A stretch of 64,000 nucleotides of DNA, taken from NCBI GenBank assembly GCA_944320195.1, contig CALUGP010000059.1:2080-66079 (forward strand). Reading direction: 5' to 3'. Position numbers and translations under genes: made by a program. Position 1 is the first letter of the stretch. Each line of letters starts with the position of its first letter. The notes under the pieces were generated by a model. That model worked only from the letters and a program-made list of their open reading frames with translations. It ran no database searches and was not told the origin of the DNA. This DNA comes from an uncultured Prevotella sp. (GTDB taxonomy: Bacteria > Bacteroidota > Bacteroidia > Bacteroidales > Bacteroidaceae). This document shows, one piece after another, positions 3,940-62,822 of the stretch.

Positions 3940-4003
3940 AAAGTCTTAGATTTATAGATTGTTATAATAATCAAATGTCCTGCAATATTACGGAAAAATT
4001 GTC

Positions 4004-4011
4004 TATATTTG
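4004..4011 (+). promoter_or_regulatory. Bacteroidetes -7 box (TAnnTTTG)
   Basis: TATATTTG upstream of the esterase gene (ATG 4093). Confidence 0.45.
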
Positions 4012-4092
4012 CAAAATAAACATTTAATAAATCACAATAAGACAGGCTTTTGCCCGCTATTGAGACAAAACCGTGCAATTACTGAAACAAAA

Positions 4093-4918: not shown

Positions 4919-4990
4919 GGTAATTAAGAGTTAAGAATTAAGAATTAAGAAAGCGTGCGCTTCCTGGTTCTTGACTCTTTTTTTTTGCCG
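4919..4990 (+). repeat. family B-derived element, locus B2, terminator-like
   Basis: TAATTAAGAGTTAAGAATTAAGAATTAAGAAAGCG..GGTTCTTGACTCTT followed by T9; immediately after the esterase stop. Confidence 0.7.
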
Positions 4991-6169: not shown

Positions 6170-6280
6170 CATTTGCCGTCTTTTAGCTCGCCAAAGGCCG
6201 TCTTTTACAGCCCGAAAGGCCGTCTTTTGCAATGCGAAAGACGGCCTTTCGCAAACCCCCTGACAGTGAGCCGTTTAGCA
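6170..6280. repeat. family A array, locus A2 (with flanking GACAGTGAGCCGTTTAGC module)
   Basis: Three AAAGGCCGTCTTT units and one GAAAGACGGCCTTT unit. Confidence 0.8.
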
Positions 6281-11356: not shown

Positions 11357-11367
11357 ACATAAGCAAA

Positions 11368-11548
11368 CCTGACACCCACGCCAACCCTCACGAAGGGAGG
11401 AAGCTTAGCAAGCCTTGCCGGTTCCAGCAACGGCTCATTGGCCTTATTTGGCTCATTAGGCCCATTAGGCTAATAAGACTAATAAGGCCAATAAGCCTTA
11501 TTGGTAGTCAAGCTCCCTCCCTTTGGGATGGTTGGGGTGGGTGTCGGG
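11368..11548. repeat. composite D(inverted)-C-D element
   Basis: CCTGACACCCACGCCAACCCTCACGAAGGGAGGAAGCTTAGC (11368-11409), a seven-unit 9-bp tandem array (11432-11505), GTCAAGCTCCCTCCCTTTGGGATGGTTGGGGTGGGTGTCGGG (11507-11548). The two D modules are inverted relative to each other. Confidence 0.8.
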
Positions 11549-11572
11549 TTTGAATGATATAAATTATTTGTC

Positions 11573-12480: not shown

Positions 12481-12537
12481 CTTATAAGGCTCATTGGCCC
12501 CATTGGCCTAATTGGCTCGATAGGCCAAATAAGCCGC
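12481..12537. repeat. family C minisatellite
   Basis: CTTATAAGGCTCATTGGCCCCATTGGCCTAATTGGCTCGATAGGCCAAATAAGCCGCC. Confidence 0.75.
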
Positions 12538-13859: not shown

Positions 13860-14342
13860 TCAACGGCCGCATTTGCGGCCCTTGTAGTATGTGTCGAAGG
13901 CGTCCTTGGCGTAGCCGTCTTCAAGCACCTGGAACGACATCGCGCTTGCGCCTGCCATCTTCTTGCCTTTGTAATACACTGTGAAATCGTCCATGGCATA
14001 GCCGTGTCCGAGCGTCTTGAACGACATCGCCGTGGCATCCCCGACCTTCTTTCCCTTGTAATAGACGTCGAAGTCGTCCTTGGCGTAGCCGTCGCCGAGC
14101 ACCTTGAACGTCATCGCGCTGGCTCCTTCAATCTTCTTTCCGCCGTATAACACGTCGAAGTCGGTCACGACGTATTTCTTCCTTCCGCGCCGTTTCTTCT
14201 TACTGTGGTGGCTGTTTTCATGCTTGCGTAGGGTCGTTGCGCGCTCGTTTTGCGCCATGCAGTCTTGCGTGAAGGCTCCGGCCGTTGGCGCGGATAGCGC
14301 GAAGGCCAGCGCGGCGGCAAGGATAATGGTTGTTGTTCTCAT
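13860..14342 (-). CDS. DKNYY-repeat secreted protein
   Basis: Signal peptide, basic stretch HSKKKRRGRKK, then four repeats of about 27 aa of type DDFDVYYKGKK(I/V/M)xGAxAMSF(K/Q)xLGxGYAxD. Confidence 0.7.
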   Translation of the reverse strand: MRTTTIILAAALAFALSAPTAGAFTQDCMAQNERATTLRKHENSHHSKKKRRGRKKYVVTDFDVLYGGKKIEGASAMTFKVLGDGYAKDDFDVYYKGKKVGDATAMSFKTLGHGYAMDDFTVYYKGKKMAGASAMSFQVLEDGYAKDAFDTYYKGRKCGR

Positions 14343-15440: not shown

Positions 15441-15538
15441 GCGTTGAGCGCATTGCAAAAGGCCGTCTTTCGCAGTGCAAAAGACGGCCTTTCGGCGTGC
15501 GTTTGACGGCCTTTTGCAAGGCGAAAGGCCGTCAATCG
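15441..15538. repeat. family A array, locus A5
   Basis: AAAGGCCGTCTTTcgcagtgcaAAAGACGGCCTTT and TTGACGGCCTTTTgcaaggcGAAAGGCCGTCAA hairpins downstream of the NPP gene. Confidence 0.85.
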
Positions 15539-25566: not shown

Positions 25567-25660
25567 CAGGAGTTAAAGGAGTTGTTTCCAGAAGTTAAGG
25601 GAGTTAAAGAAGTTGTCGCTCGCTGCGCTCGCCAAGACGTTAAAGACGTATGCTTTGCCG
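25567..25660. repeat. family B half element, locus B3 (GGAGTTAAAG words)
   Basis: AGGAGTTAAAGGAGTTGTTTCCAGAAGTTAAGGGAGTTAAAGAAGTTG; no matching right arm seen; followed by C and D modules. Confidence 0.6.
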
Positions 25661-29010: not shown

Positions 29011-29297
29011 GGGTTCATCCGCAAGCCTTTTGGGTGGACATGTGGCTCTATTAAATGCGACACATTATTCCATTTACAAATACATCCCGCTATAATCCAG
29101 GCTGTCGGTAACTGTCATTCCGCGCCCCGACGCGGAATCCAGTAAATGCCGCATATGCTGTTTGATGTATAGGATGTTCCCTGGATTCCGCGTCGGGGCG
29201 CGGAATGACAGTTACCGACAGCCTGGATTAAGGTTGGATGTTGTTATTAATAAAACTTATATTTAATCCAAAAGGTTTGCGGATGAACCGCCTTTCG
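29011..29297 (+). mobile_element. family E MITE-like element, short variant (E2, about 285 bp)
   Basis: Termini GGGTTCATCCGCAAGCCTTTTGG / CCAAAAGGTTTGCGGATGAACCGCC. Internal inverted repeat GGTAACTGTCATTCCGCGCCCCGACGCGGAATCC ... GGATTCCGCGTCGGGGCGCGGAATGACAGTTACC. Its reverse complement aligns end to end with 54686-54974. Confidence 0.75.
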
Positions 29298-34748: not shown

Positions 34749-34941
34749 TTAAGGATTAAGAGTTAGGAATTAAGAAAATATGCCTTGCAAGTTGACATGT
34801 ATGCCATAGCCTAAGCATGCTTTCTTAACTCTTAATTCTTAACTCTTAACTCCTGAAGTGTTGCTTTCTTAACTCTTAATTCTTAACTCTTAACTCATGA
34901 AGTGTTGCTTTCTTAATTCTTAATTCTTAACTCTTAATTCA
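34746..34941. repeat. family B element, locus B5, with one left arm and a triplicated right arm
   Basis: Left TAATTAAGGATTAAGAGTTAGGAATTAAGAAAA. Right-arm copies TTTCTTAACTCTTAATTCTTAACTCTTAACTC at about 34820, 34865 and 34909, separated by (C/A)TGAAGTGTTGC. Confidence 0.85.
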
Positions 34942-36066
34942 ATGGACGAAGTCCTCAACGCGCTTATCCTCTCATCGCTCGACCGCATTCAGCTGGGCAC
35001 GGCCGTGCAGCTGTGCCGCGCGGCGGGCAGCGCGTCGGCCGTGATAGACAACCGGCGCGACGCAAGGAGCATGCTTCCGGCCTGTCCGCAGCGCGTGGCC
35101 GATGCCTTGGCCGGCATCGACAGGATGAGGGGCAGGGCCGAGAGCGAGATTGAATACGCACTGCGCACCGGCGTAAAGATACTCTGCTGGGGCGGCGATG
35201 GCTATCCGCGGCGGCTCGCTTCGTGCGAGGACGCGCCGCTGGTGCTCTTCTTCCGCGGCACGGGCGGGCTTGACAGCCGTCGTGTTGTCAGCATAGTGGG
35301 CACGCGCCGGTGCACCGCCTACGGGCAAGACTGCGTCGGCTCGTTCGTAAGACGGCTGGCCGAGCTGTGCCCGGAGACGCTCGTCGTTAGCGGACTGGCT
35401 TACGGAATAGACATCTGCGCGCACCGCGACGCCCTCGAAGCCGGGCTTGACACAGTGGCCGTATTGGCCCACGGACTGGACAACCTTTACCCTCCGCGCC
35501 ACAAGGACACGGCCGACCGCATGCTCGCCCACGGCGGACTGCTCACCGAACACTTCACCCACACCAACGCCGACAAGCTGAACTTCCTGCGACGCAACCG
35601 CATAGTGGCCGGCCTGGCGGACGTCGTGGTGGTGGCGGAGAGCGCAAGCCACGGCGGCGCTCTTGTCACAGCACGCATCGCCCAGAGCTATAGCCGCGAC
35701 GTGTTCGCCTTTCCCGGCCGCGTGGGCGACGAATATTCTGAGGGCTGCAACAACCTGATACGCGACAACAAGGCCACGCTCATAACCTCGGCCGACGACT
35801 TGGTGCGGGCCATGGGATGGCAGGACGACGCCACGCTTGCCGTCGCCCGGAGGCAGGGAATAGAGCGGACGCTCTTCCCCGAGCTGTCTGTCGAGGAACA
35901 GGCCGTGGCCGACATCCTCCTGAAAGACAACGACTTGCAGATAAACACGCTCTCCGTCAGCACGGGAATGGCCGTTGGCCGCCTGGCCGCCGTGATGTTC
36001 TCGCTCGAGATGAAAGGCCTTGTGAAGTGTCGCGCTGGAGGAGTTTACCATTTAATAAGAAGTTAA
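34942..36066 (+). CDS. dprA: DNA-processing protein DprA
   Basis: Rossmann-like SGLAYGIDICAHRDAL, NFLRRNRIVAGL, GGALVTA motifs plus C-terminal winged-helix domain. Confidence 0.9.
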   Translation: MDEVLNALILSSLDRIQLGTAVQLCRAAGSASAVIDNRRDARSMLPACPQRVADALAGIDRMRGRAESEIEYALRTGVKILCWGGDGYPRRLASCEDAPLVLFFRGTGGLDSRRVVSIVGTRRCTAYGQDCVGSFVRRLAELCPETLVVSGLAYGIDICAHRDALEAGLDTVAVLAHGLDNLYPPRHKDTADRMLAHGGLLTEHFTHTNADKLNFLRRNRIVAGLADVVVVAESASHGGALVTARIAQSYSRDVFAFPGRVGDEYSEGCNNLIRDNKATLITSADDLVRAMGWQDDATLAVARRQGIERTLFPELSVEEQAVADILLKDNDLQINTLSVSTGMAVGRLAAVMFSLEMKGLVKCRAGGVYHLIRS

Positions 36067-36190
36067 AGAATTTACAGAAGTTATAGAAGTTAAAGCCGAA
36101 TGCTTTGTCAAAAGGCACTTGGATATGTTCTTACGACCGGCACGGCATGCGGCTTTAACTTCTATAACTTCAGTAAATTCTCTAAATTCT
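36058..36190. repeat. family B word-palindrome, locus B6 (AGAAGTTAAAG words)
   Basis: GAAGTTAAAGAATTTACAGAAGTTATAGAAGTTAAAGCCGAATGC / GCATGCGGCTTTAACTTCTATAACTTCAGTAAATTCTCTAAATTC. The dprA TAA lies in the left arm. Confidence 0.85.
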
Positions 36191-36205
36191 AAAACAAAAA
36201 AGACA

Positions 36206-37301: not shown

Positions 37302-38018
37302 ATGACTACCGACTTTCAATCACGCACGCGCCTGCTTGTAGGCGACGATGCCGCAGGGCGGCTTTCAGACATCAGAGTGATAGTTTTCGGCGTTGGCGGC
37401 GTTGGCAGCTGGTGCGTCGAGGGGCTGGTGCGTTCGGGCGTGAGGCGTGTCACCATCGTTGACCCCGACTGCGTTTGCCCCTCGAACGTCAACCGGCAGC
37501 TCATGGCTACGGCCGAGACCGTAGGCCGTGTGAAGGTGGACGCGCTGAAGGAACACCTGCTTACGATAAACCCCGAGGCCGAGATTGACGCGCGCCACAT
37601 GGCCTTCTGCGCCGGCACGGCAGGCCAGTTTGACCTGAATGGGTATGATTATGTCATCGACGCAATAGACAGCTTGCAGGACAAGATGCTGCTCATACGC
37701 GCTGCGTGCGACTCCCGCGCCACGCTGTTCTCGTCGATGGGAGCCGCCCGCAAGCTTGACCCTACGCGCGTCCGGGTGGCCGAGTTCTGGAAGGTACAGG
37801 GCTGTCCGTTGGCCCGTTCGCTGCGGCAGGGCTTCAAGAAGAGCGGCCTGCTGCCATCGCGCAAGTTCCAGTGCGTGTACAGCGACGAGCTGCTCGACAA
37901 TGCCGGAACGTCTCTGGAGCCTCGCGCCAACGGCTCCATGGTGCACATAACGGCCGTGTTCGGCTTCACGTTGGCCGGACTCGTCATAGGCGACGTGGTG
38001 CATAGACACGATTGTTAA
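37302..38018 (+). CDS. tcdA: tRNA threonylcarbamoyladenosine dehydratase (ThiF/E1-like)
   Basis: VIVFGVGGVGSW nucleotide-binding loop, NVNRQ motif; size fits TcdA/CsdL. Confidence 0.85.
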   Translation: MTTDFQSRTRLLVGDDAAGRLSDIRVIVFGVGGVGSWCVEGLVRSGVRRVTIVDPDCVCPSNVNRQLMATAETVGRVKVDALKEHLLTINPEAEIDARHMAFCAGTAGQFDLNGYDYVIDAIDSLQDKMLLIRAACDSRATLFSSMGAARKLDPTRVRVAEFWKVQGCPLARSLRQGFKKSGLLPSRKFQCVYSDELLDNAGTSLEPRANGSMVHITAVFGFTLAGLVIGDVVHRHDC

Positions 38019-38056
38019 TTCTTAACTCTTAATTCTTAACTTTTAACTCTTAATTC
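38014..38056. repeat. family B single arm, locus B7
   Basis: GTTAATTCTTAACTCTTAATTCTTAACTTTTAACTCTTAATTC, containing the tcdA TAA. Confidence 0.75.
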
Positions 38057-42313: not shown

Positions 42314-42345
42314 AATTTAACTTCCGTTTGCATATTGGCGGTGCT

Positions 42346-42456
42346 GCGAAAGGCCGTCTTTTGCGTTGCGAAAGGCCATGAATCGCGTTGCAAAAGGCCG
42401 TCTTTTGCACGCCAAAAGACTGCCTTTTGCAACGCGTTGAGCATCAGCCAGTTAGG
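42346..42456. repeat. family A array, locus A12 (divergent region)
   Basis: GCGTTGCAAAAGGCCGTCTTTTGCACGCCAAAAGACTGCCTTTTGCAACGC long hairpin plus two units; GCATCAGCCAGTTAGG module. Confidence 0.85.
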
Positions 42457-49517: not shown

Positions 49518-49617
49518 GTCTGGCACTCAGCGCGTTGCAAAAGGCCGTCTTTCAGTCTGCAAAAGACGGCCTTTTGCAACGCGTTTTGCGGCCTTTTGGA
49601 ATGCAAAAGGCCGTGAA
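49518..49617. repeat. family A array, locus A14 (divergent region)
   Basis: Perfect 21-bp stem 49532-49552 / 49562-49582 (GCGTTGCAAAAGGCCGTCTTT ... AAAGACGGCCTTTTGCAACGC) with a 9-nt loop, plus a second short hairpin. Confidence 0.9.
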
Positions 49618-50362: not shown

Positions 50363-51625
50363 ATGGCAACAAGAAAGAGTGGTGAAGACACCGTGAGCAT
50401 GGTGGACACCTTTAAGGAATTCAAAGACACGAAGAACATCGACCGCACCACGCTGATGAGCGTCCTGGAAGAGAGTTTCCGCAACGTCATCGCCAAGATA
50501 TTCGGCAGCGACGAGAACTTCGACGTCATCGTGAACCCCGACAAGGGCGACTTCGAAATCTACCGCAACCGCATCGTCGTGGCCGACGGCGAGGTGAAAG
50601 ACGAGAACAAGGAAATATCGCTTACCGACGCGCTGAAGATAGAACCCGACTACGAGGTGGGCGAGGAAGTCAGCGAGAAGGTCGATTTCAGTAAGTTCGG
50701 CCGCCGCGCCATACTCAACCTGCGCCAGACACTGGCCTCGAAAATACTCGAGCTTGAGCACGACAGCCTCTACAACAAGTACAAGGATCGCGTGGGCCAG
50801 GTAATCAGCGCCGAGGTCTACCAGGTGTGGAAGCGCGAAGTTCTGCTCGTGGACGACGAGAACAACGAGCTCATCCTGCCGAAGTCAGAGCAGATACCCC
50901 ACGACGTCTACCGCAAGGGCGAGACCGTGCGCGCCGTCATCAAGGAAGTGAACAACGAGAACAACAACCCCAAGATAATCCTCTCGCGCACGAGCAACAT
51001 GTTCCTCGAACGCCTGCTCGAGGCCGAAGTGCCCGAGATCGCAGACGGACTCATCACCATACGCCGCATCGCACGCATGCCCGGCGAGCGCGCCAAGATA
51101 GCCGTCGAGAGCTATGACGACCGCATAGACCCCGTAGGAGCGTGCGTCGGAGTGAAGGGAAGCCGCGTCCACGGCATCGTTCGCGAACTCTGCAACGAGA
51201 ACATCGACGTGGTGAACTACACCGCAAACATAAAGCTCTTCATACAGCGCGCGCTCAGTCCGGCCAAGATATCAAGCATCAACGTCGACGAGGAAAACAA
51301 GAAAGCGGAGGTGTATCTCCGTCCGGAGGAAGTATCCCTCGCCATCGGCCGCGGCGGAATGAACATCAAGCTGGCCAGCATGCTTACCGAATACACCATC
51401 GACGTGTTCCGCGAACTTGACGAGAGCGAAGTCGACGAGGACATCTACCTCGACGAATTCTCAGACGAAATAGACCAGTGGATCATCGACGCCATCAAAG
51501 GCATCGGCCTCGACACCGCCAAGGCCGTGCTCAACGCTCCGCGCGAGATGCTCGTCGAGAAGGCCGACCTCGAGGAAGAGACCGTCGACAACGTGCTGAA
51601 AGTGCTTAGGGCGGAGTTTGAATAA
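50363..51625 (+). CDS. nusA: transcription termination/antitermination factor NusA
   Basis: S1 and two KH domains (ARMPGERAKIAV, VGACVGVKGSRV, AIGRGGMNIKLA). Confidence 0.96.
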   Translation: MATRKSGEDTVSMVDTFKEFKDTKNIDRTTLMSVLEESFRNVIAKIFGSDENFDVIVNPDKGDFEIYRNRIVVADGEVKDENKEISLTDALKIEPDYEVGEEVSEKVDFSKFGRRAILNLRQTLASKILELEHDSLYNKYKDRVGQVISAEVYQVWKREVLLVDDENNELILPKSEQIPHDVYRKGETVRAVIKEVNNENNNPKIILSRTSNMFLERLLEAEVPEIADGLITIRRIARMPGERAKIAVESYDDRIDPVGACVGVKGSRVHGIVRELCNENIDVVNYTANIKLFIQRALSPAKISSINVDEENKKAEVYLRPEEVSLAIGRGGMNIKLASMLTEYTIDVFRELDESEVDEDIYLDEFSDEIDQWIIDAIKGIGLDTAKAVLNAPREMLVEKADLEEETVDNVLKVLRAEFE

Positions 51626-51768
51626 TTCATAATTCATAATTCATAATTCATAATTGGCTGCGCATCAGCAAAAACTGGAATATGTGTTTAGTCAGTTATG
51701 AATTATGGAATTGAATATCGGTCAAGCCAATGGGAGTTATGAATTATGAATTATGAATTGTGAATTGA
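51621..51768. repeat. family B word-palindrome, locus B9 (AATTCATA words) between nusA and infB
   Basis: AATAATTCATAATTCATAATTCATAATTCATAATTGG ... GAGTTATGAATTATGAATTATGAATTGTGAATTG. The nusA TAA lies in the left arm. Confidence 0.85.
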
Positions 51769-54686: not shown

Positions 54687-54974
54687 GCGAAAGGGATTCA
54701 TCCGCAAACCTTTTGGATTAAACATAAGTTCTATTAATGACACCATCCAACCTTAATCCAGGCAGTCGGTAACTGTCATTCCGCGCCTTGACGTGGAATC
54801 CGGAGAACATCCTATACATCAAACAGCATATGCTGTATTTACTGGATTCCGCGTCGGAGCGCGGAATGACAGTTACTGACCACCTGGATTATGGCAGGAT
54901 GTATTTGTAAATGAAATAATGTGTCACATTTAATAGAGCCGTATGTCCATCCGAGAGGTTTGCGGATGAACTGC
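54686..54974 (-). mobile_element. family E MITE-like element, short variant (E3), inverted copy of E2
   Basis: GGGATTCATCCGCAAACCTTTTGGATTAAAC...GGTAACTGTCATTCCGCGCC...GGAATGACAGTTAC...GAGGTTTGCGGATGAACTGC. By eye, roughly nine in ten positions are identical to the reverse complement of E2. Confidence 0.75.
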
Positions 54975-56765: not shown

Positions 56766-57098
56766 ATGCATGTTTATTTTGCAGGCAGAAACGAAACTGT
56801 AAAATATACGCATATGGAAAAGCAAATATCATTAGGCGCAAACGAGAATGTGTTTGGAAAGTGTGCTGAGGCTGTGAGAAGGATATGCCGTTGTGCCGGT
56901 ATGCCGCAACGGATGTTACGCAACTACTACTCAAAGGTGCTCGGCGAGAACGTCGGCGAAGCCCGTGCGCGGGCCATGACCGAAGCCCAGGCGGCCTTCT
57001 TCGCCGTGACCCTGCCGGTGGATTATCCCCTGGCGCTCAGGTTTGTGGTGTGCGCGTGGTTCGTGGTGGCGTTGAGGAAGTTAAGAGTTAAGGGTTAA
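56766..57098 (+). CDS. hypothetical protein (weak call)
   Basis: ORF only; possible start also at Met17 (56814). One hydrophobic C-terminal segment; last codons and the TAA lie in a family-B repeat arm. Confidence 0.3.
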   Translation: MHVYFAGRNETVKYTHMEKQISLGANENVFGKCAEAVRRICRCAGMPQRMLRNYYSKVLGENVGEARARAMTEAQAAFFAVTLPVDYPLALRFVVCAWFVVALRKLRVKG

Positions 57099-57201
57099 GA
57101 ATTAAGAGTTAAGAGTTAAGAAAATATGACTTGAAGTACAATATTGCCGACAAAGCATATTTTCTTAACTCTTAATTCTTAACTCTTAACTCTTAATTTT
57201 T
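57076..57201. repeat. family B word-palindrome, locus B11 (downstream of sufS)
   Basis: GAAGTTAAGAGTTAAGGGTTAAGAATTAAGAGTTAAGAGTTAAGAAAA / TTTTCTTAACTCTTAATTCTTAACTCTTAACTCTTAATT. Confidence 0.85.
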
Positions 57202-57202
57202 A

Positions 57203-58417
57203 TCAGAACATCCTGCTGACGCGCTTCACTCCGTCCGCAAGCGTGTCGATTTCCTCCTTCGTGTTGTAGAGGGCGAACGAGGCGCGCACCGTGCCCTGTA
57301 TTCCGAGGCGCAGCATGAGGGGCTGGGCGCAGTGGTGGCCCGTGCGCACGGCTATGCCAAGGCGGTCGAGCAGCGTGCCCATGTCGAGGTGGTGGATGTC
57401 GCCCACAAGGAACGAAACCACGGCATCCTTGCGTGCCGACGTGCCGAATACGCGCAGCCCGTCAACCTCGGCGAGCCGCCGCATGGCGTAGCGTGTAAGC
57501 TCCTGTTCGTGCATCTGGATGTTGTCCATGCCTATGGCTGTGATGTAGTCAATGGCCTTTGCCAAGCCGTGGGTGGCCACGTAGTCGGGTGTGCCGGCCT
57601 CGAACTTGAACGGCAGACGCTCGAACACTGTTTTCTCGAAGCTCACACTCTCAATCATCTCTCCCCCGCCCTGGTAAGGCGGCAGGCGGTCGAGCCAGTC
57701 TTCCTTGCCGTAAAGCACGCCTACGCCAGTAGGACCGTACATCTTGTGGCCGCTGAAGGCGAAGAAGTCGCAGTCCATCGCCTGCACGTCCACTGCGAAG
57801 TGGGGCGCGCTCTGTGCGCCGTCAACCATCACTGGCACGCCGTGTTCATGAGCTATACGTATGATTTCGTCCACCGGGTTGACCGTGCCGAGCACGTTGC
57901 TGACGTGCGTCACGCTGACGATTTTCGTCTTGTCGGTGAACAGCTTTTCGTATTCGTCGAGCCTCAGCTCGCCTTCGTCGGTCATCGGGATTACCCGTAT
58001 TGATATGCCGCGCTTGGCCGCCTGTAGTTGCCATGGCACGATGTTTGAGTGGTGTTCCATGACCGAGACAATCACTTCGTCGCCCTCCCGCATGAATTCG
58101 TCGCAGAAGGAAGACGCCACGAGGTTGAGGCTCTCGGTTGTTCCGCGGGTGAATATGATTTCGCTTGTCGCCCTTGCGTTGATGAACTGCCTTACCTTCT
58201 CGCGCGCTCCCTCGTGCAGGTCGGTGGCCTGTTGCGACAGGTAATGCACTCCGCGATGCACGTTGGCGTTGACGTTGTAGTATTCTTCGGTGATGGCTTC
58301 GACCACAGGGCGCGGCTTTTGGGTGGTCGCCGCGTTGTCCAAGTATACCAATGGCCGGTCGTAAACCTTGCGGCCGAGGATTGGGAAGTCGTTGCGTATT
58401 TGGTTGATGTCGAACAT
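57203..58417 (-). CDS. sufS: cysteine desulfurase SufS
   Basis: FSGHKMYGPTG (PLP Lys) and RTGHHCAQPL (active-site Cys) motifs. Confidence 0.93.
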   Translation of the reverse strand: MFDINQIRNDFPILGRKVYDRPLVYLDNAATTQKPRPVVEAITEEYYNVNANVHRGVHYLSQQATDLHEGAREKVRQFINARATSEIIFTRGTTESLNLVASSFCDEFMREGDEVIVSVMEHHSNIVPWQLQAAKRGISIRVIPMTDEGELRLDEYEKLFTDKTKIVSVTHVSNVLGTVNPVDEIIRIAHEHGVPVMVDGAQSAPHFAVDVQAMDCDFFAFSGHKMYGPTGVGVLYGKEDWLDRLPPYQGGGEMIESVSFEKTVFERLPFKFEAGTPDYVATHGLAKAIDYITAIGMDNIQMHEQELTRYAMRRLAEVDGLRVFGTSARKDAVVSFLVGDIHHLDMGTLLDRLGIAVRTGHHCAQPLMLRLGIQGTVRASFALYNTKEEIDTLADGVKRVSRMF

Positions 58418-58430
58418 GATATTTCTTTTT

Positions 58431-58618
58431 TAGGAGTTAAAGGAATTAAGGAAGTCAAAGGAGTTAAAGACGAATGTTTTATTTCAGGGAGTTAAGGAGT
58501 TATGTAGTTAAGGAGTTAAGACAAATGTTTTGTTTCAGGGAGCTAAGACTACGCTTTATTTAATTTGTCTGCAAAGCATTTGTCTTAACTCCTTAACTAC
58601 ATAACTCCTTAACTACTA
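58431..58618. repeat. family B word-palindrome, locus B12 (GGAGTTAAG words) between sufD and sufS
   Basis: About 38-bp near-perfect inverted repeat GAGTTAAGGAGTTATGTAGTTAAGGAGTTAAGACAAATG (about 58489-58526) / CATTTGTCTTAACTCCTTAACTACATAACTCCTTAACT (about 58577-58614), plus an extra partial left arm. Confidence 0.85.
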
Positions 58619-58627
58619 AAATAAAAA

Positions 58628-59974
58628 TCATCTGCACAGCTTGCATCCCTCGCATTTGTTCAGCTCTCCGCGGAAGCGTTTCTCCACGAGATAGTGCAAG
58701 CGGTCGCGCAGGGGGTCGAGCTTTATGCCGTCGATTACCTCGTTTATGAAAGCGAACTCAAGCAGGAGCTTGGCCTCCTTGAGCGGTATGCCGCGTTGGC
58801 GCATGTAGAACAGGGCCGCGTCGTTGAGCTGGCCTACGGTGCTTCCGTGGGCGCACTTCACGTCGTCGGCGTATATTTCGAGCATCGGTTGCGTGTACAT
58901 GCGGGCTTCCTTGGTTGCGCAGAGGTTCTGGTTGGTCTCCTGCGAAACGGTCTGCTGCGCACCGTGGCGCACCAGCACGCGGCCGGCGAACGCGCCAACG
59001 GCGTTGCCGTCAAGCACGTATTTGTACAGTTCGCGGCTCGTGCAGCGGCCTACGCGGTGGTCGATGAGCGTGTTGTTGTCAACGTGCTGGTGCTTGTCGG
59101 CTATCACGCAGCCGTAAAGGTCGCACTCGGCACCCTCCCCGGCGAACACAAGGTCGGTGCGGTTGCGCGTCACCCCGTTGTGAAGCGTGATGACATTGTG
59201 GCTCACGCGGCTGTCCCTCTGTTGCTCAATGAACACGTTGCTCACGCGGACGTTCTTCACGTGGGTCTCTTCCAGGCAGTAAAGGTCTAACGAGGCGTTG
59301 TCACCGACGTATGCCTCAATCACCTGGGTGGCGAGGAAACGGCGGTCGTCGGCGGCATGGTCGCAGAAGAGCAGCTTGATTTCGGCGCGTTCCTCGACTA
59401 CTATCAACACGCGGCGGTTGACCATCAGGTCAACGTCGGAGCGCAGGATGTTGATCACCTGCACGGCCCTGTCCACCACGACGCCCTTCGGCACGTACAC
59501 CAGCAGCCCGTCTTGCGCCAGCATCGTGTTGAGAGCCGTGATGCCGTCGTCGGCCGTCTTGGCCAGCTTGGCGTAATGCTTGGCCACGAAGTCTGGGTGT
59601 TCGGCGGCGTATTTGGCCAGCGAACCCACTACGACTCCTTCTGGCAGAAGGTGGTTTTTGGGCAGGGCTTTGTCGTAAAAGCCGTCGTTCAACACGAAAT
59701 AGAGCGACGTGCTGAGGTTGGGAACGTCGCAGCGGAACGCCTCATACGGGTCTACCGGTATTTCCAAGCGGTTGAGGTTAAGCCCGTAGTCAGGTTCAAA
59801 CAACGCCGGGATGTCCGTGTATTTATACCTCTCGACCTTCTTCGTGGGGAAGCCGAGGCGGCGGAAGTCGCTGAAAGCGGCGTCGCGCACGGCGTTCATC
59901 GGCTCCGCGCTGTGCGACATTAGCATGTCGCGGCACTGCCCATAGAGGTCGATATATTGTTTTTCGCTTTGCAT
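58628..59974 (-). CDS. sufD: Fe-S cluster assembly protein SufD
   Basis: Operon position; C-terminal PMLEIYADDVKCAHGSTVGQLD...FYMRQRGI SufB/D signature. Confidence 0.9.
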   Translation of the reverse strand: MQSEKQYIDLYGQCRDMLMSHSAEPMNAVRDAAFSDFRRLGFPTKKVERYKYTDIPALFEPDYGLNLNRLEIPVDPYEAFRCDVPNLSTSLYFVLNDGFYDKALPKNHLLPEGVVVGSLAKYAAEHPDFVAKHYAKLAKTADDGITALNTMLAQDGLLVYVPKGVVVDRAVQVINILRSDVDLMVNRRVLIVVEERAEIKLLFCDHAADDRRFLATQVIEAYVGDNASLDLYCLEETHVKNVRVSNVFIEQQRDSRVSHNVITLHNGVTRNRTDLVFAGEGAECDLYGCVIADKHQHVDNNTLIDHRVGRCTSRELYKYVLDGNAVGAFAGRVLVRHGAQQTVSQETNQNLCATKEARMYTQPMLEIYADDVKCAHGSTVGQLNDAALFYMRQRGIPLKEAKLLLEFAFINEVIDGIKLDPLRDRLHYLVEKRFRGELNKCEGCKLCR

Positions 59975-59988
59975 GTTTTTTATGTTTA

Positions 59989-60167
59989 TATAGAAGTTAA
60001 AGAATTTAGAGAAGTTATAGAAGTTAAAGCCAAATGCTTCCTCGGATGATTGGCGATAAGCCGAACAAGCCTAATCAGACCTATTAGGCAAATAAGATAA
60101 CTCGATATTAAAGCCTGCAAGGCATTTGGCTTTAACTTCTATAACTTCTCTAAATTCTTTAACTTCC
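59989..60167. repeat. family B word-palindrome, locus B13 (AGAAGTTAAAG words) between sufC and sufD, with a family-C insert (60051-60098)
   Basis: About 45-bp arms AGAAGTTAAAGAATTTAGAGAAGTTATAGAAGTTAAAGCCAAATGC / GCATTTGGCTTTAACTTCTATAACTTCTCTAAATTCTTTAACTTC. Same subfamily as B6. Confidence 0.9.
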
Positions 60168-60176
60168 AACAATTCT

Positions 60177-60929
60177 TCATTCTCCCACTTCCTCCTTAAT
60201 CCAGTCGTAGCCGCGTTTTTCGATTTCTTTCGACAGCTCCGGCCCGGCGGTCTTCACAATGCGGCCCTTGTAGAGCACGTGGATTATGTCGGGCTTGATG
60301 ATGTCGAGCAGGCGTTCGTAGTGCGTGATGACAATGCAGCTCGACTCCGGCGTACGCAGCTTGTTGACGCCTTCGGCCACGATGCGCAGCGCGTCAACGT
60401 CAAGACCCGAGTCGGTCTCGTCGAGGATGCTCAGCTTCGGCTCGAGCATCGCCATCTGGAAAATCTCGTTGCGCTTCTTTTCGCCGCCGCTGAAGCCTTC
60501 GTTCACCGAGCGGCTTGACAGTTTGCTGTCAAGCTCGACGATTTTCCTCTTCTCACGCATGAGCTTCAGGAAGTCGGCCGCGTTGAGCGGTTCTTTGCCC
60601 TCATACTTGCGTTTCTCGTTGACGGCGGCACGCATGAAGTTGGTCATCGACACCCCGGGGATTTCCACCGGGTATTGGAACGAGAGGAAAAGTCCCTCGT
60701 GCGCCCTGTCCTCGGGCTTCATGGCGAGCAGGTCTTTGCCGTTGAACGTAACCTCGCCTTCGGTCACCTCGTACAGCGGGTTGCCTACAAGCACCGCGCT
60801 CAGCGTACTCTTTCCCGAGCCGTTGGGCCCCATTATGGCGTGCGTCTCGCCGTCTTTTATTGTAAGGTTGATGCCCTTCAATATCTCCTTGTCGCCGATT
60901 TTGGCGTGTAAGTTCCTTATCTCTAACAT
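60177..60929 (-). CDS. sufC: Fe-S cluster assembly ATPase SufC
   Basis: Walker A GPNGSGKST, ABC signature FSGGEKKRNE, Walker B LSILDETDSGLD; ATG 60929. Confidence 0.95.
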   Translation of the reverse strand: MLEIRNLHAKIGDKEILKGINLTIKDGETHAIMGPNGSGKSTLSAVLVGNPLYEVTEGEVTFNGKDLLAMKPEDRAHEGLFLSFQYPVEIPGVSMTNFMRAAVNEKRKYEGKEPLNAADFLKLMREKRKIVELDSKLSSRSVNEGFSGGEKKRNEIFQMAMLEPKLSILDETDSGLDVDALRIVAEGVNKLRTPESSCIVITHYERLLDIIKPDIIHVLYKGRIVKTAGPELSKEIEKRGYDWIKEEVGE

Positions 60930-60935
60930 TTTATT

Positions 60936-61085
60936 TAATTCATAATTGGCTTTCGCCGAACTTCGTTTCACAATTCATAATACATAATCGGGCTGCGCCT
61001 TGTCAATTCATAACCCATAATGCGTAATCCATAATAATAATGGCGTATGCCCAATTATGAATTGTGAATTATGAATTATGAATTA
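60936..61085. repeat. family B word-palindrome, locus B14 (AATTCATA words) between sufB and sufC
   Basis: TTAATTCATAATTGG...CAATTCATAA...ATTCATAACCCATAA... / CCAATTATGAATTGTGAATTATGAATTATGAATTAA. Same subfamily as B9. Confidence 0.8.
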
Positions 61086-61090
61086 AAGAT

Positions 61091-62551
61091 TTACCCTACT
61101 GTCCCCTCCAGCGACACGCTGAGCAGCTTCTGAGCCTCAACGGCGAACTCCATGGGCAGCTTGTTAAGCACTTCCTTGGCGTATCCGTTGACGATGAGGC
61201 CCACGGCTTGCTCGGTCGGTATGCCGCGCTGGTTGCAGTAGAAGAGCTGTTCCTCGCTGATTTTGCTGGTCGTAGCCTCATGCTCAACTATGGCCGAGTC
61301 GTTGTGTATGTCCATGTAGGGGAACGTGTGCGCGCCGCAGTCTGAGCCGAGCAGCAGCGAGTCGCACGACGAATAGTTGCGGGCATTGTCGGCATTAGGC
61401 GACACGCGCACCAGTCCTCGGTACGAGTTCTGGCTGTGCCCGGCGCTGATACCCTTGCTTATGATGGTACTCTTGGTGTTCTTTCCCAAGTGAATCATCT
61501 TCGTTCCGGTGTCAGCTTCCTGATAATTGTTGGTCACTGCCACGGAATAAAACTCCGCCACCGAGTTGTCTCCGCGCAATATGCACGACGGATACTTCCA
61601 TGTTATTGCCGACCCCGTCTCTACCTGCGTCCACGAGAGCTTCGAGTTATTGCCCCGCAGGTCGCCGCGCTTGGTCACGAGATTCAGCACACCGCCTCGC
61701 CCGTGCTCGTCGCCGGGATACCAGTTCTGCACCGTTGAGTATTTCACTTCGGCGTTGTCTTTCACTATTATCTCGACGATGGCGGCATGAAGCTGGTTCT
61801 CGTCGCGCATCGGAGCGGTGCATCCTTCAAGGTAAGACACGTAGCTGTCGTCCTCGGCGATGATGAGCGTACGCTCGAACTGCCCCGTATTCCTCGCGTT
61901 TATGCGGAAATACGAACTGAGCTCCATCGGACTACGCACGCCCTTGGGTATGTAGACGAACGAGCCGTCGCTGAAAACGGCGCTGTTAAGCGCGGCGAAG
62001 AAATTGTCACGGTACGGCACAACACTGCCCAAATACTCACGCACGAGGTCGGGATGCTGCTTCACCGCGTCGCCTATCGAGCAGAATATGATACCCTTCT
62101 CGGCCAGTTTCTCCTTATACGTAGTCTTCACCGACACCGAGTCCATTATCGCGTCGACGGCCGTCTGACCGCTCAGCGCGAGGCGTTCCTCGAGCGGAAT
62201 GCCCAGCTTGTCAAACGTTTTCATCAGCTCAGGGTCAATCTCCTTCTTGCCCTCGTCCTTCTTCTTGGCCATAGGGTCGGCATAGTAAGATATTGCCTGG
62301 TAGTCGATGTCGGGCACGTTGACGTGCCCCCACGTCGGCTGCTCCAGCGTCTGCCAGTAGTTGAAGGCCTTAAGGCGGAAGTCGAGCAGCCACTCCGGCT
62401 CACCTTTCTTTGCCGAGATGAGACGCACCACGTCCTCGTTAAGTCCTACGTCGATTATGTCCGTATGCACGTCGGTAGTAAAGCCGAACTCGTATTTCTG
62501 CTCGGCCACCTGGCGCACAAACTCGTTCTGGTTGTTGTTTACTGTCTCCAT
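61091..62551 (-). CDS. sufB: Fe-S cluster assembly scaffold SufB
   Basis: [13 protein letters not shown]... start (ATG 62551); conserved C-terminal [21 protein letters not shown]. Confidence 0.95.
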
Positions 62552-62605
62552 TCTTGTAAAACCAATAGTCGCCGGGCTTTGCCGGGACACATTTCTGCAA
62601 GTTTG

Positions 62606-62613
62606 CAAAGATA
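62606..62613 (-). promoter_or_regulatory. Bacteroidetes -7 box for sufBCDS
   Basis: Minus-strand TATCTTTG 55 nt upstream of ATG 62551. Confidence 0.5.
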
Positions 62614-62685
62614 AGCAATAATGGATGCACAAGCAAAATTTTACATATAAAAAAACAAAACATGTGTGGCCGTATGCCCTGTTGC

Positions 62686-62822
62686 AGCCTGTCAGCATGT
62701 ATGCCGAATTTCAAAAGGCCGTAAATCGCAATGCGAAAGGCCGTCGATTACAACGCAAAAGGCCGTGTTTCACGATGCGAAACACGGCCTTTTGCGAACA
62801 TGCTGATTGTCAGCGGTTTGCG
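62686..62822. repeat. family A array, locus A16 (flanking module overlaps the stop codon of the 62810 CDS)
   Basis: CAAAAGGCCGTAAATCG, GCGAAAGGCCGTCGATT, AAAAGGCCGTGTTTCACGATGCGAAACACGGCCTTTT hairpin, CTGATTGTCAGCGGTTTGCG module. Confidence 0.85.

Follow-up and report, generated by a model that had tools for sequence, protein, structure and literature searches.

AT-rich tandem-unit palindromes filling the gaps of a Prevotella sufBCDS operon are probably copies of dispersed repeat families

We analysed a 64-kb stretch of DNA from an uncultured Prevotella sp. (contig CALUGP010000059.1; hereafter the window), in which the genes of a sufBCDS operon are set apart by long inverted repeats. Each of the three intercistronic spacers is nearly all one hairpin and a fourth hairpin lies directly 3' of sufS, as an earlier note on this DNA had described; inverted repeats, gap lengths and folding z-scores uphold that description. 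[quoted passage not shown] On the signals present, sufBCDS is most likely still one transcript, made from a promoter upstream of sufB and running through all three hairpins.

The spacers measure 161 nt (sufB-sufC), 202 nt (sufC-sufD) and 210 nt (sufD-sufS, 58418-58627; Table 1). The arms of the palindromes consist of tandem, AT-rich units of 7-9 nt, which differ between elements and define their dialects (GTTAAGA, GGAGTTAA, AGAAGTTAA, AATTCAT). Whole elements span 120-200 nt, with arms of 31-56 nt and loops of 17-84 nt, and are AT-rich within a genome of 57% GC; an inner motif, AAATGCYTTG, is common to three of the four suf-associated palindromes. When the sense-strand RNA of each site was compared with 200 dinucleotide shuffles, none of the 200 folded as well at any site. 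The arms of the sufC-sufD element (59993-60037 and 60122-60166) are 45 nt long and 100% complementary, and enclose an 84-nt loop with a 9-mer array. Those of the sufD-sufS element (58477-58532 and 58572-58627) are 56 nt long and 88% complementary, with a mismatch-free core of about 38 bp, and those of the element after sufS (57082-57133 and 57151-57202) are 52 nt long and 87% complementary. The sufB-sufC element pairs 61005-61035 with 61054-61084 (31 nt, 81% complementary) and has outer arms at 60967-60988 and 61061-61082; the base of its hairpin lies 3 nt past the sufB stop codon and 4 nt ahead of the sufC ATG.

Some details of the earlier description had to be revised. It had assigned the palindromes of all gaps to one family (family B); palindromes are present throughout, but the sufB-sufC element belongs to a separate AATTCAT family with a distinct inner motif (AATTGGGC...), and a homologue of it occupies the same site in locus L002 (loci are referred to by our own numbers). 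It had drawn the sufD-sufS element as a single unit at 58431-58618, where a hairpin is indeed present; the region is made up of a complete palindrome plus the relic single arm of an older one. It had also seen a nested family-C insert in the sufC-sufD element. An extra array does lie in that loop, but the same 9-mer array recurs in the loops of other copies, so that it is perhaps not a nested insertion at all but one of the regular modules. Rfam gave no match at the gathering threshold across the window, and an E-value scan of the suf region returned only sub-threshold matches to generic microRNA-precursor hairpins.

The palindromes are not specific to suf, because the same families fill other gaps of the window and are absent from, or different at, the suf gaps of relatives. 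Of the window's 46 intergenic gaps, about 24 contain a strong inverted repeat of one of several families, namely palindromes of TTAA units, of AATTCAT units, of a GC-rich sequence with a 22-nt period (GGCCGTC), of CATTCCGC..GCGGAATG and of CCCTCCC..GGGAGGG. As the earlier note had stated, nusA-infB and dprA-dusB are separated likewise, the former by a paralogue of the sufB-sufC element and the latter by one in the sufC-sufD dialect; the nusA-infB gap is just 18-94 nt in other Prevotella. Four distinct units follow one another in the same order in the sufC-sufD element, in the dprA-dusB copy and in a copy found in the sufB-sufC gap of L084. The core AGAAGTTATAGAAGTTAAAGCCRAATGC was recovered from 25 gut-metagenome stretches in at least 14 distinct flanking contexts, about nine of which lie between the end and the start of successive same-strand open reading frames (ORFs). 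The elements thus show some of the features of a MITE: terminal inverted repeats, small size, no coding sequence and multiple dispersed copies. Two other candidates were rejected, a suf-specific regulatory RNA on the grounds that unrelated operons contain these families too while relatives lack them, and mimicry of the Shine-Dalgarno/anti-Shine-Dalgarno pairing by GGAG units, which fits one dialect only.

Comparison across 85-91 Prevotellaceae suf loci shows that the palindromes were evidently inserted into, or expanded within, originally short intercistronic spacers. Such a comparison of intergenic lengths had been proposed in the earlier note, and the gaps of related genomes are usually far shorter: of 91 sufC-sufD gaps, whose median is 17 nt, 62 do not exceed 50 nt, and the sufD-sufS gap has a median of 46 nt. 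The sufB-sufC gap is more variable; 20 of 85 loci have more than 450 nt and an extra gene there. The density of long inverted repeats is 0.1-0.7 per kb in the window's clade, against about zero in most Prevotella loci outside it. Among the closest species, the sufC-sufD gap of L002 and the sufD-sufS gaps of L004 and L006 are instead taken up by GC-rich palindromes of an unrelated family; in L003 the sufD-sufS gap is only 18 nt, and a further outcome at these gaps is another dialect. The site after sufS likewise holds other dialects or other families in relatives.

The same loci show fast turnover, by gain or loss of units in one arm, arm-to-arm correction, family replacement and collapse to short remnants. 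Among strains with an identical SufD protein, the older sufD-sufS palindrome is complete in L081 and L084; in the window, L082 and L087 the newer hairpin replaces the left arm and loop of the older element, and L083 and L086 carry the newer form with one arm 17 nt shorter. In the element after sufS, unit number varies on one arm only (L081, L082, L084 and L087). In the sufC-sufD element of L083 and L086 two outer units are exchanged on both arms, with complementarity still perfect. At the sufD-sufS gap of Segatella copri MSK.21.95 there is a full 135-nt palindrome, where sister strains with flanks 98-100% identical hold a collapsed 36-nt remnant (TTAAAGGAGTTAAG/TTCTTAAAA) and one strain only 11 nt.

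By its pattern of identities the suf locus is itself a recombination mosaic. The closest reference genome, OZ006992.1, is a hifiasm-assembled chromosome of an uncultured Prevotella (a metagenome-assembled genome, MAG) and is 99-100% identical to the window only within 58037-60635 (2.6 kb), with about 85% identity outside. L083 and L086 belong to the same species as the window (99% identity upstream of sufB and 96% from sufC to rnhB); their sufB allele, however, is only 88% identical to the window's (61051-62557). The breakpoints around this divergent sufB cassette fall in repeat-filled gaps on both sides.

Promoter and terminator signals were examined in the gaps. The Bacteroidetes promoter pattern TTTG-N17-23-TAnnTTTG has six matches in the window against 0.68 expected from shuffles, all of them upstream of genes; none falls within the suf gaps, and the -7 box TAnnTTTG is absent from the sense strand of all three. 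Among non-convergent gaps of at least 100 nt, a -7 box is found in 0 of 12 with an AT-rich palindrome and in 13 of 22 without (Fisher p = 6e-4, or 0.003 with a stricter count). The promoter before sufB is the sole consensus Bacteroidetes promoter of the operon. In the sense direction no U-tract follows any of the three internal suf hairpins of the window, and 28 of 30 palindrome-bearing suf gaps of relatives are without a T-rich tail, so that the combination of GC-rich stem, short loop and U-tract that marks an intrinsic terminator is not seen in the suf-gap palindromes of the window. From stop codon to stem the median distance is 8 nt, and from the end of the stem to the next ATG it is 16.5 nt, with an A-rich leader between.

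From the lack of promoter and terminator signals, together with this spacing, it follows that sufBCDS is most likely one transcript. In the arrangement we propose, transcription from the sufB promoter would run through the three hairpins, and each stem would loop out the insert, so that the stop codon and the A-rich leader with its ATG stay about 10-25 nt apart, as in the ancestral spacing. Carrying neither a Bacteroidetes promoter box nor a terminator U-tract, the hairpins would be transparent to expression, and would be able to persist in an essential operon because of this. The earlier note had left two possibilities, a promoter acquired by each gene or read-through that implied antitermination or processing. 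The former is not borne out, as neither a Bacteroidetes promoter nor a -7 box was found in the suf gaps; the latter is favoured by the sequence signals as far as read-through goes, with no special antitermination required since no U-tract follows the hairpins. Processing by RNase III into monocistronic units is plausible. Perfect RNA stems of 38-45 bp might, more speculatively, be cleaved by RNase III or act as a barrier to 3' exonucleases, and so give rise to cistron segments differing in stability.

A number of points weigh against this explanation. The gene calls behind the -7-box comparison came from a crude in-house predictor, and the 12 gaps with palindromes add up to no more than about 3.3 kb. 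A hairpin of great stability can make RNA polymerase pause or terminate even where a canonical U-tract is lacking, and the rules of termination are less established for Bacteroidetes than for E. coli. Read-through, pausing and processing are all deduced from sequence. With respect to mobility, no target-site duplication, cognate transposase or insertion sequence partner was found in the loci examined, which did not amount to a genome-wide search; the flanks of every long inverted repeat, searched by BLAST against all loci and inspected, gave no convincing target-site duplication. Likewise, the ends of paralogues and the comparison of filled with empty sites yielded no consistent direct repeat, the 'empty' sites being diverged or retaining unit remnants. 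Finally, folding energy shows no clear strand bias across 77 unique suf gaps (the sense strand is more stable in 46 and the antisense in 31), and of the mismatches between arms the one met most often is C.A on the sense RNA; therefore nothing points specifically to selection on the suf mRNA.

The last point bears on the alternative that survives best, in which the palindromes are selected RNA or DNA elements: RNase III punctuation, mRNA stabilisers that set stoichiometry, or arrays bound by nucleoid or RNA-binding proteins. An alignment of six alleles and two paralogues of the sufC-sufD dialect showed 5 of 45 arm pairs changed on both sides, in 8 cells, a result matched in at most 2 of 500 shuffles and in none of the slid controls; among strains the intermediates form a series from G:C through a T.C mismatch to T:A. 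Arm complementarity has thus been kept by two-sided changes, as this alternative would have it, and these could reflect selection for pairing or, equally, template-switch correction of quasipalindromes, a process that changes both arms without selection. The precise placement of the elements between stop and start codons speaks for selection as well, although it is also what would be expected of any tolerated insertion into a spacer of 10-40 nt. Prevotella-like phage contigs in which solo unit arrays separate a stop codon from an ATG are consistent with a selected role, as are the analogies with REP stabilisers, Correia elements and the TAACTGA heptamer arrays that precede start codons (PMC4679880). 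The turnover, the replacement by unrelated families and the complete absence in relatives, together with the lack of strand bias in folding, argue the other way, and we consider selection as the main explanation possible but rather unlikely.

A bolder proposal, to which we give slightly less credence, is that the tandem-unit palindromes form a distinct and so far undescribed Prevotellaceae class, assembled from modules of 7-9 nt (TTAA-type units, GGCYNATTR 9-mers and AGCGAGCGA 9-mers), that specifically colonises intercistronic spacers, maintains its hairpin by copying between arms and is used by the host as RNA punctuation. If this were true, RNase III or exonuclease-barrier sites would split the sufBCDS and nusA-infB transcripts into segments of differing stability, and the stem would keep stop and start codons together for coupled translation.

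A further reading, unlikely in our estimation, takes the hairpins for Rho entry points, attenuators or terminators of partial strength, through which the operon would show graded polarity (B > C > D > S) or be expressed conditionally. Their stems are very stable (-50 to -89 kcal/mol), they occupy untranslated spacers of 161-210 nt, and the unpaired, C-rich and G-poor relic arm ahead of sufS could resemble a Rho loading site. Against this stand the missing sense-direction U-tracts, the presumably essential nature of Fe-S assembly, in which SufB, SufC and SufD act as a complex, and the occurrence of the same elements inside nusA-infB and dprA-dusB; presence and absence among close relatives also argues against a built-in regulatory role.

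More doubtful again is that each palindrome acts as an outward-firing promoter, with sufB, sufC, sufD and sufS as separate units. A precedent exists in the BrickBuilt MITE of Porphyromonas gingivalis, whose promoter activity is bidirectional (PMC4596501). There is also a likeness between the inner motif, (A)TATGCTTTG or ATACCTTTG, and the -7 box TAnnTTTG; the box itself, however, is missing from the sense strand of the suf gaps and from all 12 palindrome gaps compared above, the arms contain no TTTG usable as a -33 element, and within the operon the full pattern occurs solely upstream of sufB. The sufB-sufC palindrome also holds TTGACA-18-TATTAT (61006-60977, minus strand), which agrees with the E. 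coli sigma-70 consensus at 11 of 12 positions and is probably irrelevant here, since the primary sigma factor of Bacteroidetes does not use that consensus.

Errors or misjoins made in assembling low-complexity DNA had been named in the earlier note as a possible refutation, and to the notion that the palindromes arose in this way we attach virtually no weight: at least 10 assemblies, independent of one another and including some made with hifiasm, Canu, metaSPAdes and MEGAHIT from different samples, contain the sufC-sufD and sufD-sufS palindromes with only a few substitutions, related elements are present in isolates grown in culture (Xylanibacter rarus 109, S. copri MSK.21.95 and Prevotella merdae), and the arm variants form the consistent series among strains given above.

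The preferred explanation, that of dispersed repeat copies, can be set against known systems. These elements were not found described anywhere in a search of the literature, outside which lay the supplements to a census of prokaryotic MITEs (PMC11602168); PINSR of P. intermedia was considered and is a different, non-palindromic 188-bp repeat (PMC4755523). On structural grounds the closest analogues are REPs and bacterial interspersed mosaic elements (BIMEs), MITEs such as Correia and BrickBuilt, and intergenic heptamer arrays, and none of them fully matches. Like REPs and BIMEs, the elements resemble high-copy extragenic hairpin repeats that often lie between operon genes (e.g. malE-malF) or at 3' ends, are tolerated within transcription units and can be barriers to 3' exonucleases. 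REPs, however, are imperfect palindromes of 20-40 nt with a GTAG or CGTC tag, mobilised by REP-associated tyrosine transposases (RAYTs; PMC3733652). The present elements are far from that size, at 120-200 nt, and are AT-rich, with 30-56-nt arms of tandem 7-9-mers; they show no conserved tag, since GTAG is confined to variant forms of some units (GTAGTTAA) and is absent from the GTTAAGA, AGAAGTTAA and AATTCAT dialects. No RAYT was identified for them, though the ORFs of the window were given no transposase scan.

With the MITEs BrickBuilt and Correia the elements share long terminal inverted repeats, a lack of coding sequence and a dispersed, intergenic and lineage-restricted occurrence, but the agreement with MITEs is incomplete, as no target-site duplication or partner insertion sequence was found in the loci examined; Correia hairpins in Neisseria mRNAs are substrates of RNase III. 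They have no sequence similarity to either. BrickBuilt also comes from Bacteroidales and contains tandem repeats, but its 23-nt repeat is an internal minisatellite between small inverted ends (PMC4596501), whereas here the units form the arms. BrickBuilt, moreover, carries promoters, and the present elements lack -7 boxes. The TAACTGA arrays of Beggiatoaceae, Cyanobacteria and some Bacteroidetes (PMC4679880) and the cyanobacterial short tandemly repeated repetitive (STRR) sequences are similar in having tandem 7-nt intergenic units that end a few nt before start codons and in being sporadic and lineage-specific; the 3'-arm units TAACTCT, TAACTCC and TAACTTC share TAACT with TAACTGA. Those arrays are nearly all direct repeats in one orientation, in contrast to the inverted pairs, 7-9-nt periods, several dialects and conserved inner motif seen here, and solo direct arrays of the present units were found only in phage-like contigs. 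Intrinsic terminators are also stable stem-loops right after stop codons; the suf-gap palindromes differ in having no sense U-tract and loops of 17-84 nt.

The identity of the operon is clear from NCBIfam models: SufB, SufC, SufD and SufS all score above their family cut-offs and are encoded in this order on the minus strand, as in a SUF operon, and the sufBCDS order is kept across 90 related loci. The sufB ORF had been listed as 535 aa, extending to 62698, and this is an over-extension. The NF008773 match starts at residue 54 of the long ORF and SufB of relatives is annotated at 485 aa, which places the true start at ATG 62551. An extra ORF of 242 aa lies between sufB and sufC in L083/L086 (3163-4046), L001 (4159-5045) and many other Prevotella; it has a signal-peptide-like N-terminus and is without a Pfam match, and the corresponding site of the window holds the palindrome alone. 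On the other side of the operon, a plus-strand ORF (56766-57098; 110 aa in the window, 93-110 aa overall) is conserved, has no family match and is convergent with sufS. It ends within the palindrome after sufS, and a T-run (TTTTTAT) follows that hairpin solely on the strand of this ORF.

Table 1. Features of the suf region and paralogous palindromes in the window (positions are those of the window; folding energies and z-scores are for sense-strand RNA).
Feature	Position	Strand	Details
sufB	61091..62551	-	486 aa; NF008773, 867 bits vs cut-off 717
sufB-sufC spacer	60930..61090		AATTCAT-unit composite palindrome; -49.8 kcal/mol, z -5.9
sufC	60177..60929	-	250 aa; true start ATG 60929; TIGR01978, 367 bits vs cut-off 213
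sufC-sufD spacer	59975..60176		AGAAGTTAA-unit palindrome; -89.3 kcal/mol, z -13.1
sufD	58628..59974	-	448 aa; TIGR01981, 242 bits vs cut-off 222
sufD-sufS complete palindrome	58477..58627		GGAGTTAA units; -73.2 kcal/mol, z -12.0
Relic single right arm of older GGAGTTAAAG-unit palindrome	58431..58476		directly upstream of sufS ATG; predicted unpaired
sufS	57203..58417	-	404 aa; TIGR01979, 587 bits vs cut-off 475
Palindrome after sufS	57078..57202		GTTAAGA units; between sufS and convergent 110-aa ORF; -50.2 kcal/mol, z -10.7
Bacteroidetes-type promoter	62606..62637	-	TTTG-N20-TATCTTTG; ~55 nt upstream of sufB ATG 62551
GC-rich 'family A' hairpin	62754..62796	-	GCAAAAGGCCGTGTTTC...GAAACACGGCCTTTTGC; 18-nt arms, 100% complementary; 3' T-run
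Paralogue in sufC-sufD dialect	36058..36195		dprA-dusB spacer
AATTCAT-unit palindrome, paralogue of sufB-sufC element	51624..51766		nusA-infB spacer

The GC-rich 'family A' hairpin ahead of the sufB promoter is terminator-like in form and would close the upstream transcription unit. Hairpins of the GC-rich family with a 22-nt period (CAAAAGGCCGTC...GACGGCCTTTTG, containing CGTC) and with A/T-run flanks were seen at 62712-62796, 42345-42408, 49526-49588, 6175-6254, 15449-15523 and other positions, and a GC-rich hairpin, mostly of this family, lies upstream of each of the six consensus promoters. The family probably serves as a bidirectional terminator at unit boundaries, judging from this placement. 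With their GGCCGTC stems and A/T-run flanks, the 'family A' hairpins fit the terminator pattern and precede promoters, whereas the AT-rich family of the same genome does neither. The contrast in T-tails between GC-rich and AT-rich hairpins is blurred by the A/T runs of the former, which fall inside extended arms.

The elements look modular, as far as the arrangement of their parts can tell. At 34818-34941 three copies of the right arm of a GTTAAGA palindrome, 96% identical to one another, follow with a period of 44 nt, and the array ends 1-2 nt ahead of the dprA ATG, and solo arms were seen at 38011-38056 and 4922-4951. An 18-nt GC-rich module of two 9-mers (AGCGAGYGATAGCGAGCGA) interrupts the right arm of several copies in the AGAAGTTAA dialect at unrelated loci (L084 at 4000-4030; L097, L109 and L115; the window at 25615-25640). 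The 9-mer GGCYNATTR forms arrays within loops and, at 11432-11497 and 12492-12530, palindromes that stand by themselves. A scan of IMG/VR for GTTAAGA arrays brought up no autonomous element; a few Prevotella-like phage contigs gave solo arrays or an element in degenerate form, and nothing more. In phage-like contigs of 50-54% GC (L092 at ~2169, L093 at ~2582 and L095 at ~2392), solo (A/G)TTAAGA arrays lie precisely in the interval from a stop codon to the ATG that follows; one of the three has a 9-mer loop and a degenerate second arm.

Other repeats of the window include a family of long palindromes with 50-70-nt arms containing GTCATTCCGC...GCGGAATGAC (816-954, 29072-29251 and 54744-54901) and a CACCCACCCC..CCCTCCC/GGGAGGG family (1705-1870 and 11361-11555), the latter also present in the suf gaps of L002, L004 and L006. 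A tandem repeat of 87 nt (13878-14163; 3.3 copies, 73% identity) lies inside a minus-strand ORF at 13860-14342.

For this genome the data suggest a candidate rule, in which GC-rich hairpins end transcription units and are followed by promoters, while AT-rich tandem-unit palindromes sit inside units. Intergenic DNA saturated with long hairpins, even in essential operons, affects the prediction of operons and terminators, short-read assembly and the quality of MAGs, the typing of strains and the way expression constructs are designed. Among the bacteria of the gut, Prevotella and Segatella are dominant and still poorly tractable. S. copri MSK.21.95 and other strains of S. copri provide cultured natural pairs with and without an element, and such pairs bear on what a 40-bp perfect mRNA stem does to transcription, to processing and to the coupling of translation in a phylum whose initiation is not of the Shine-Dalgarno kind.

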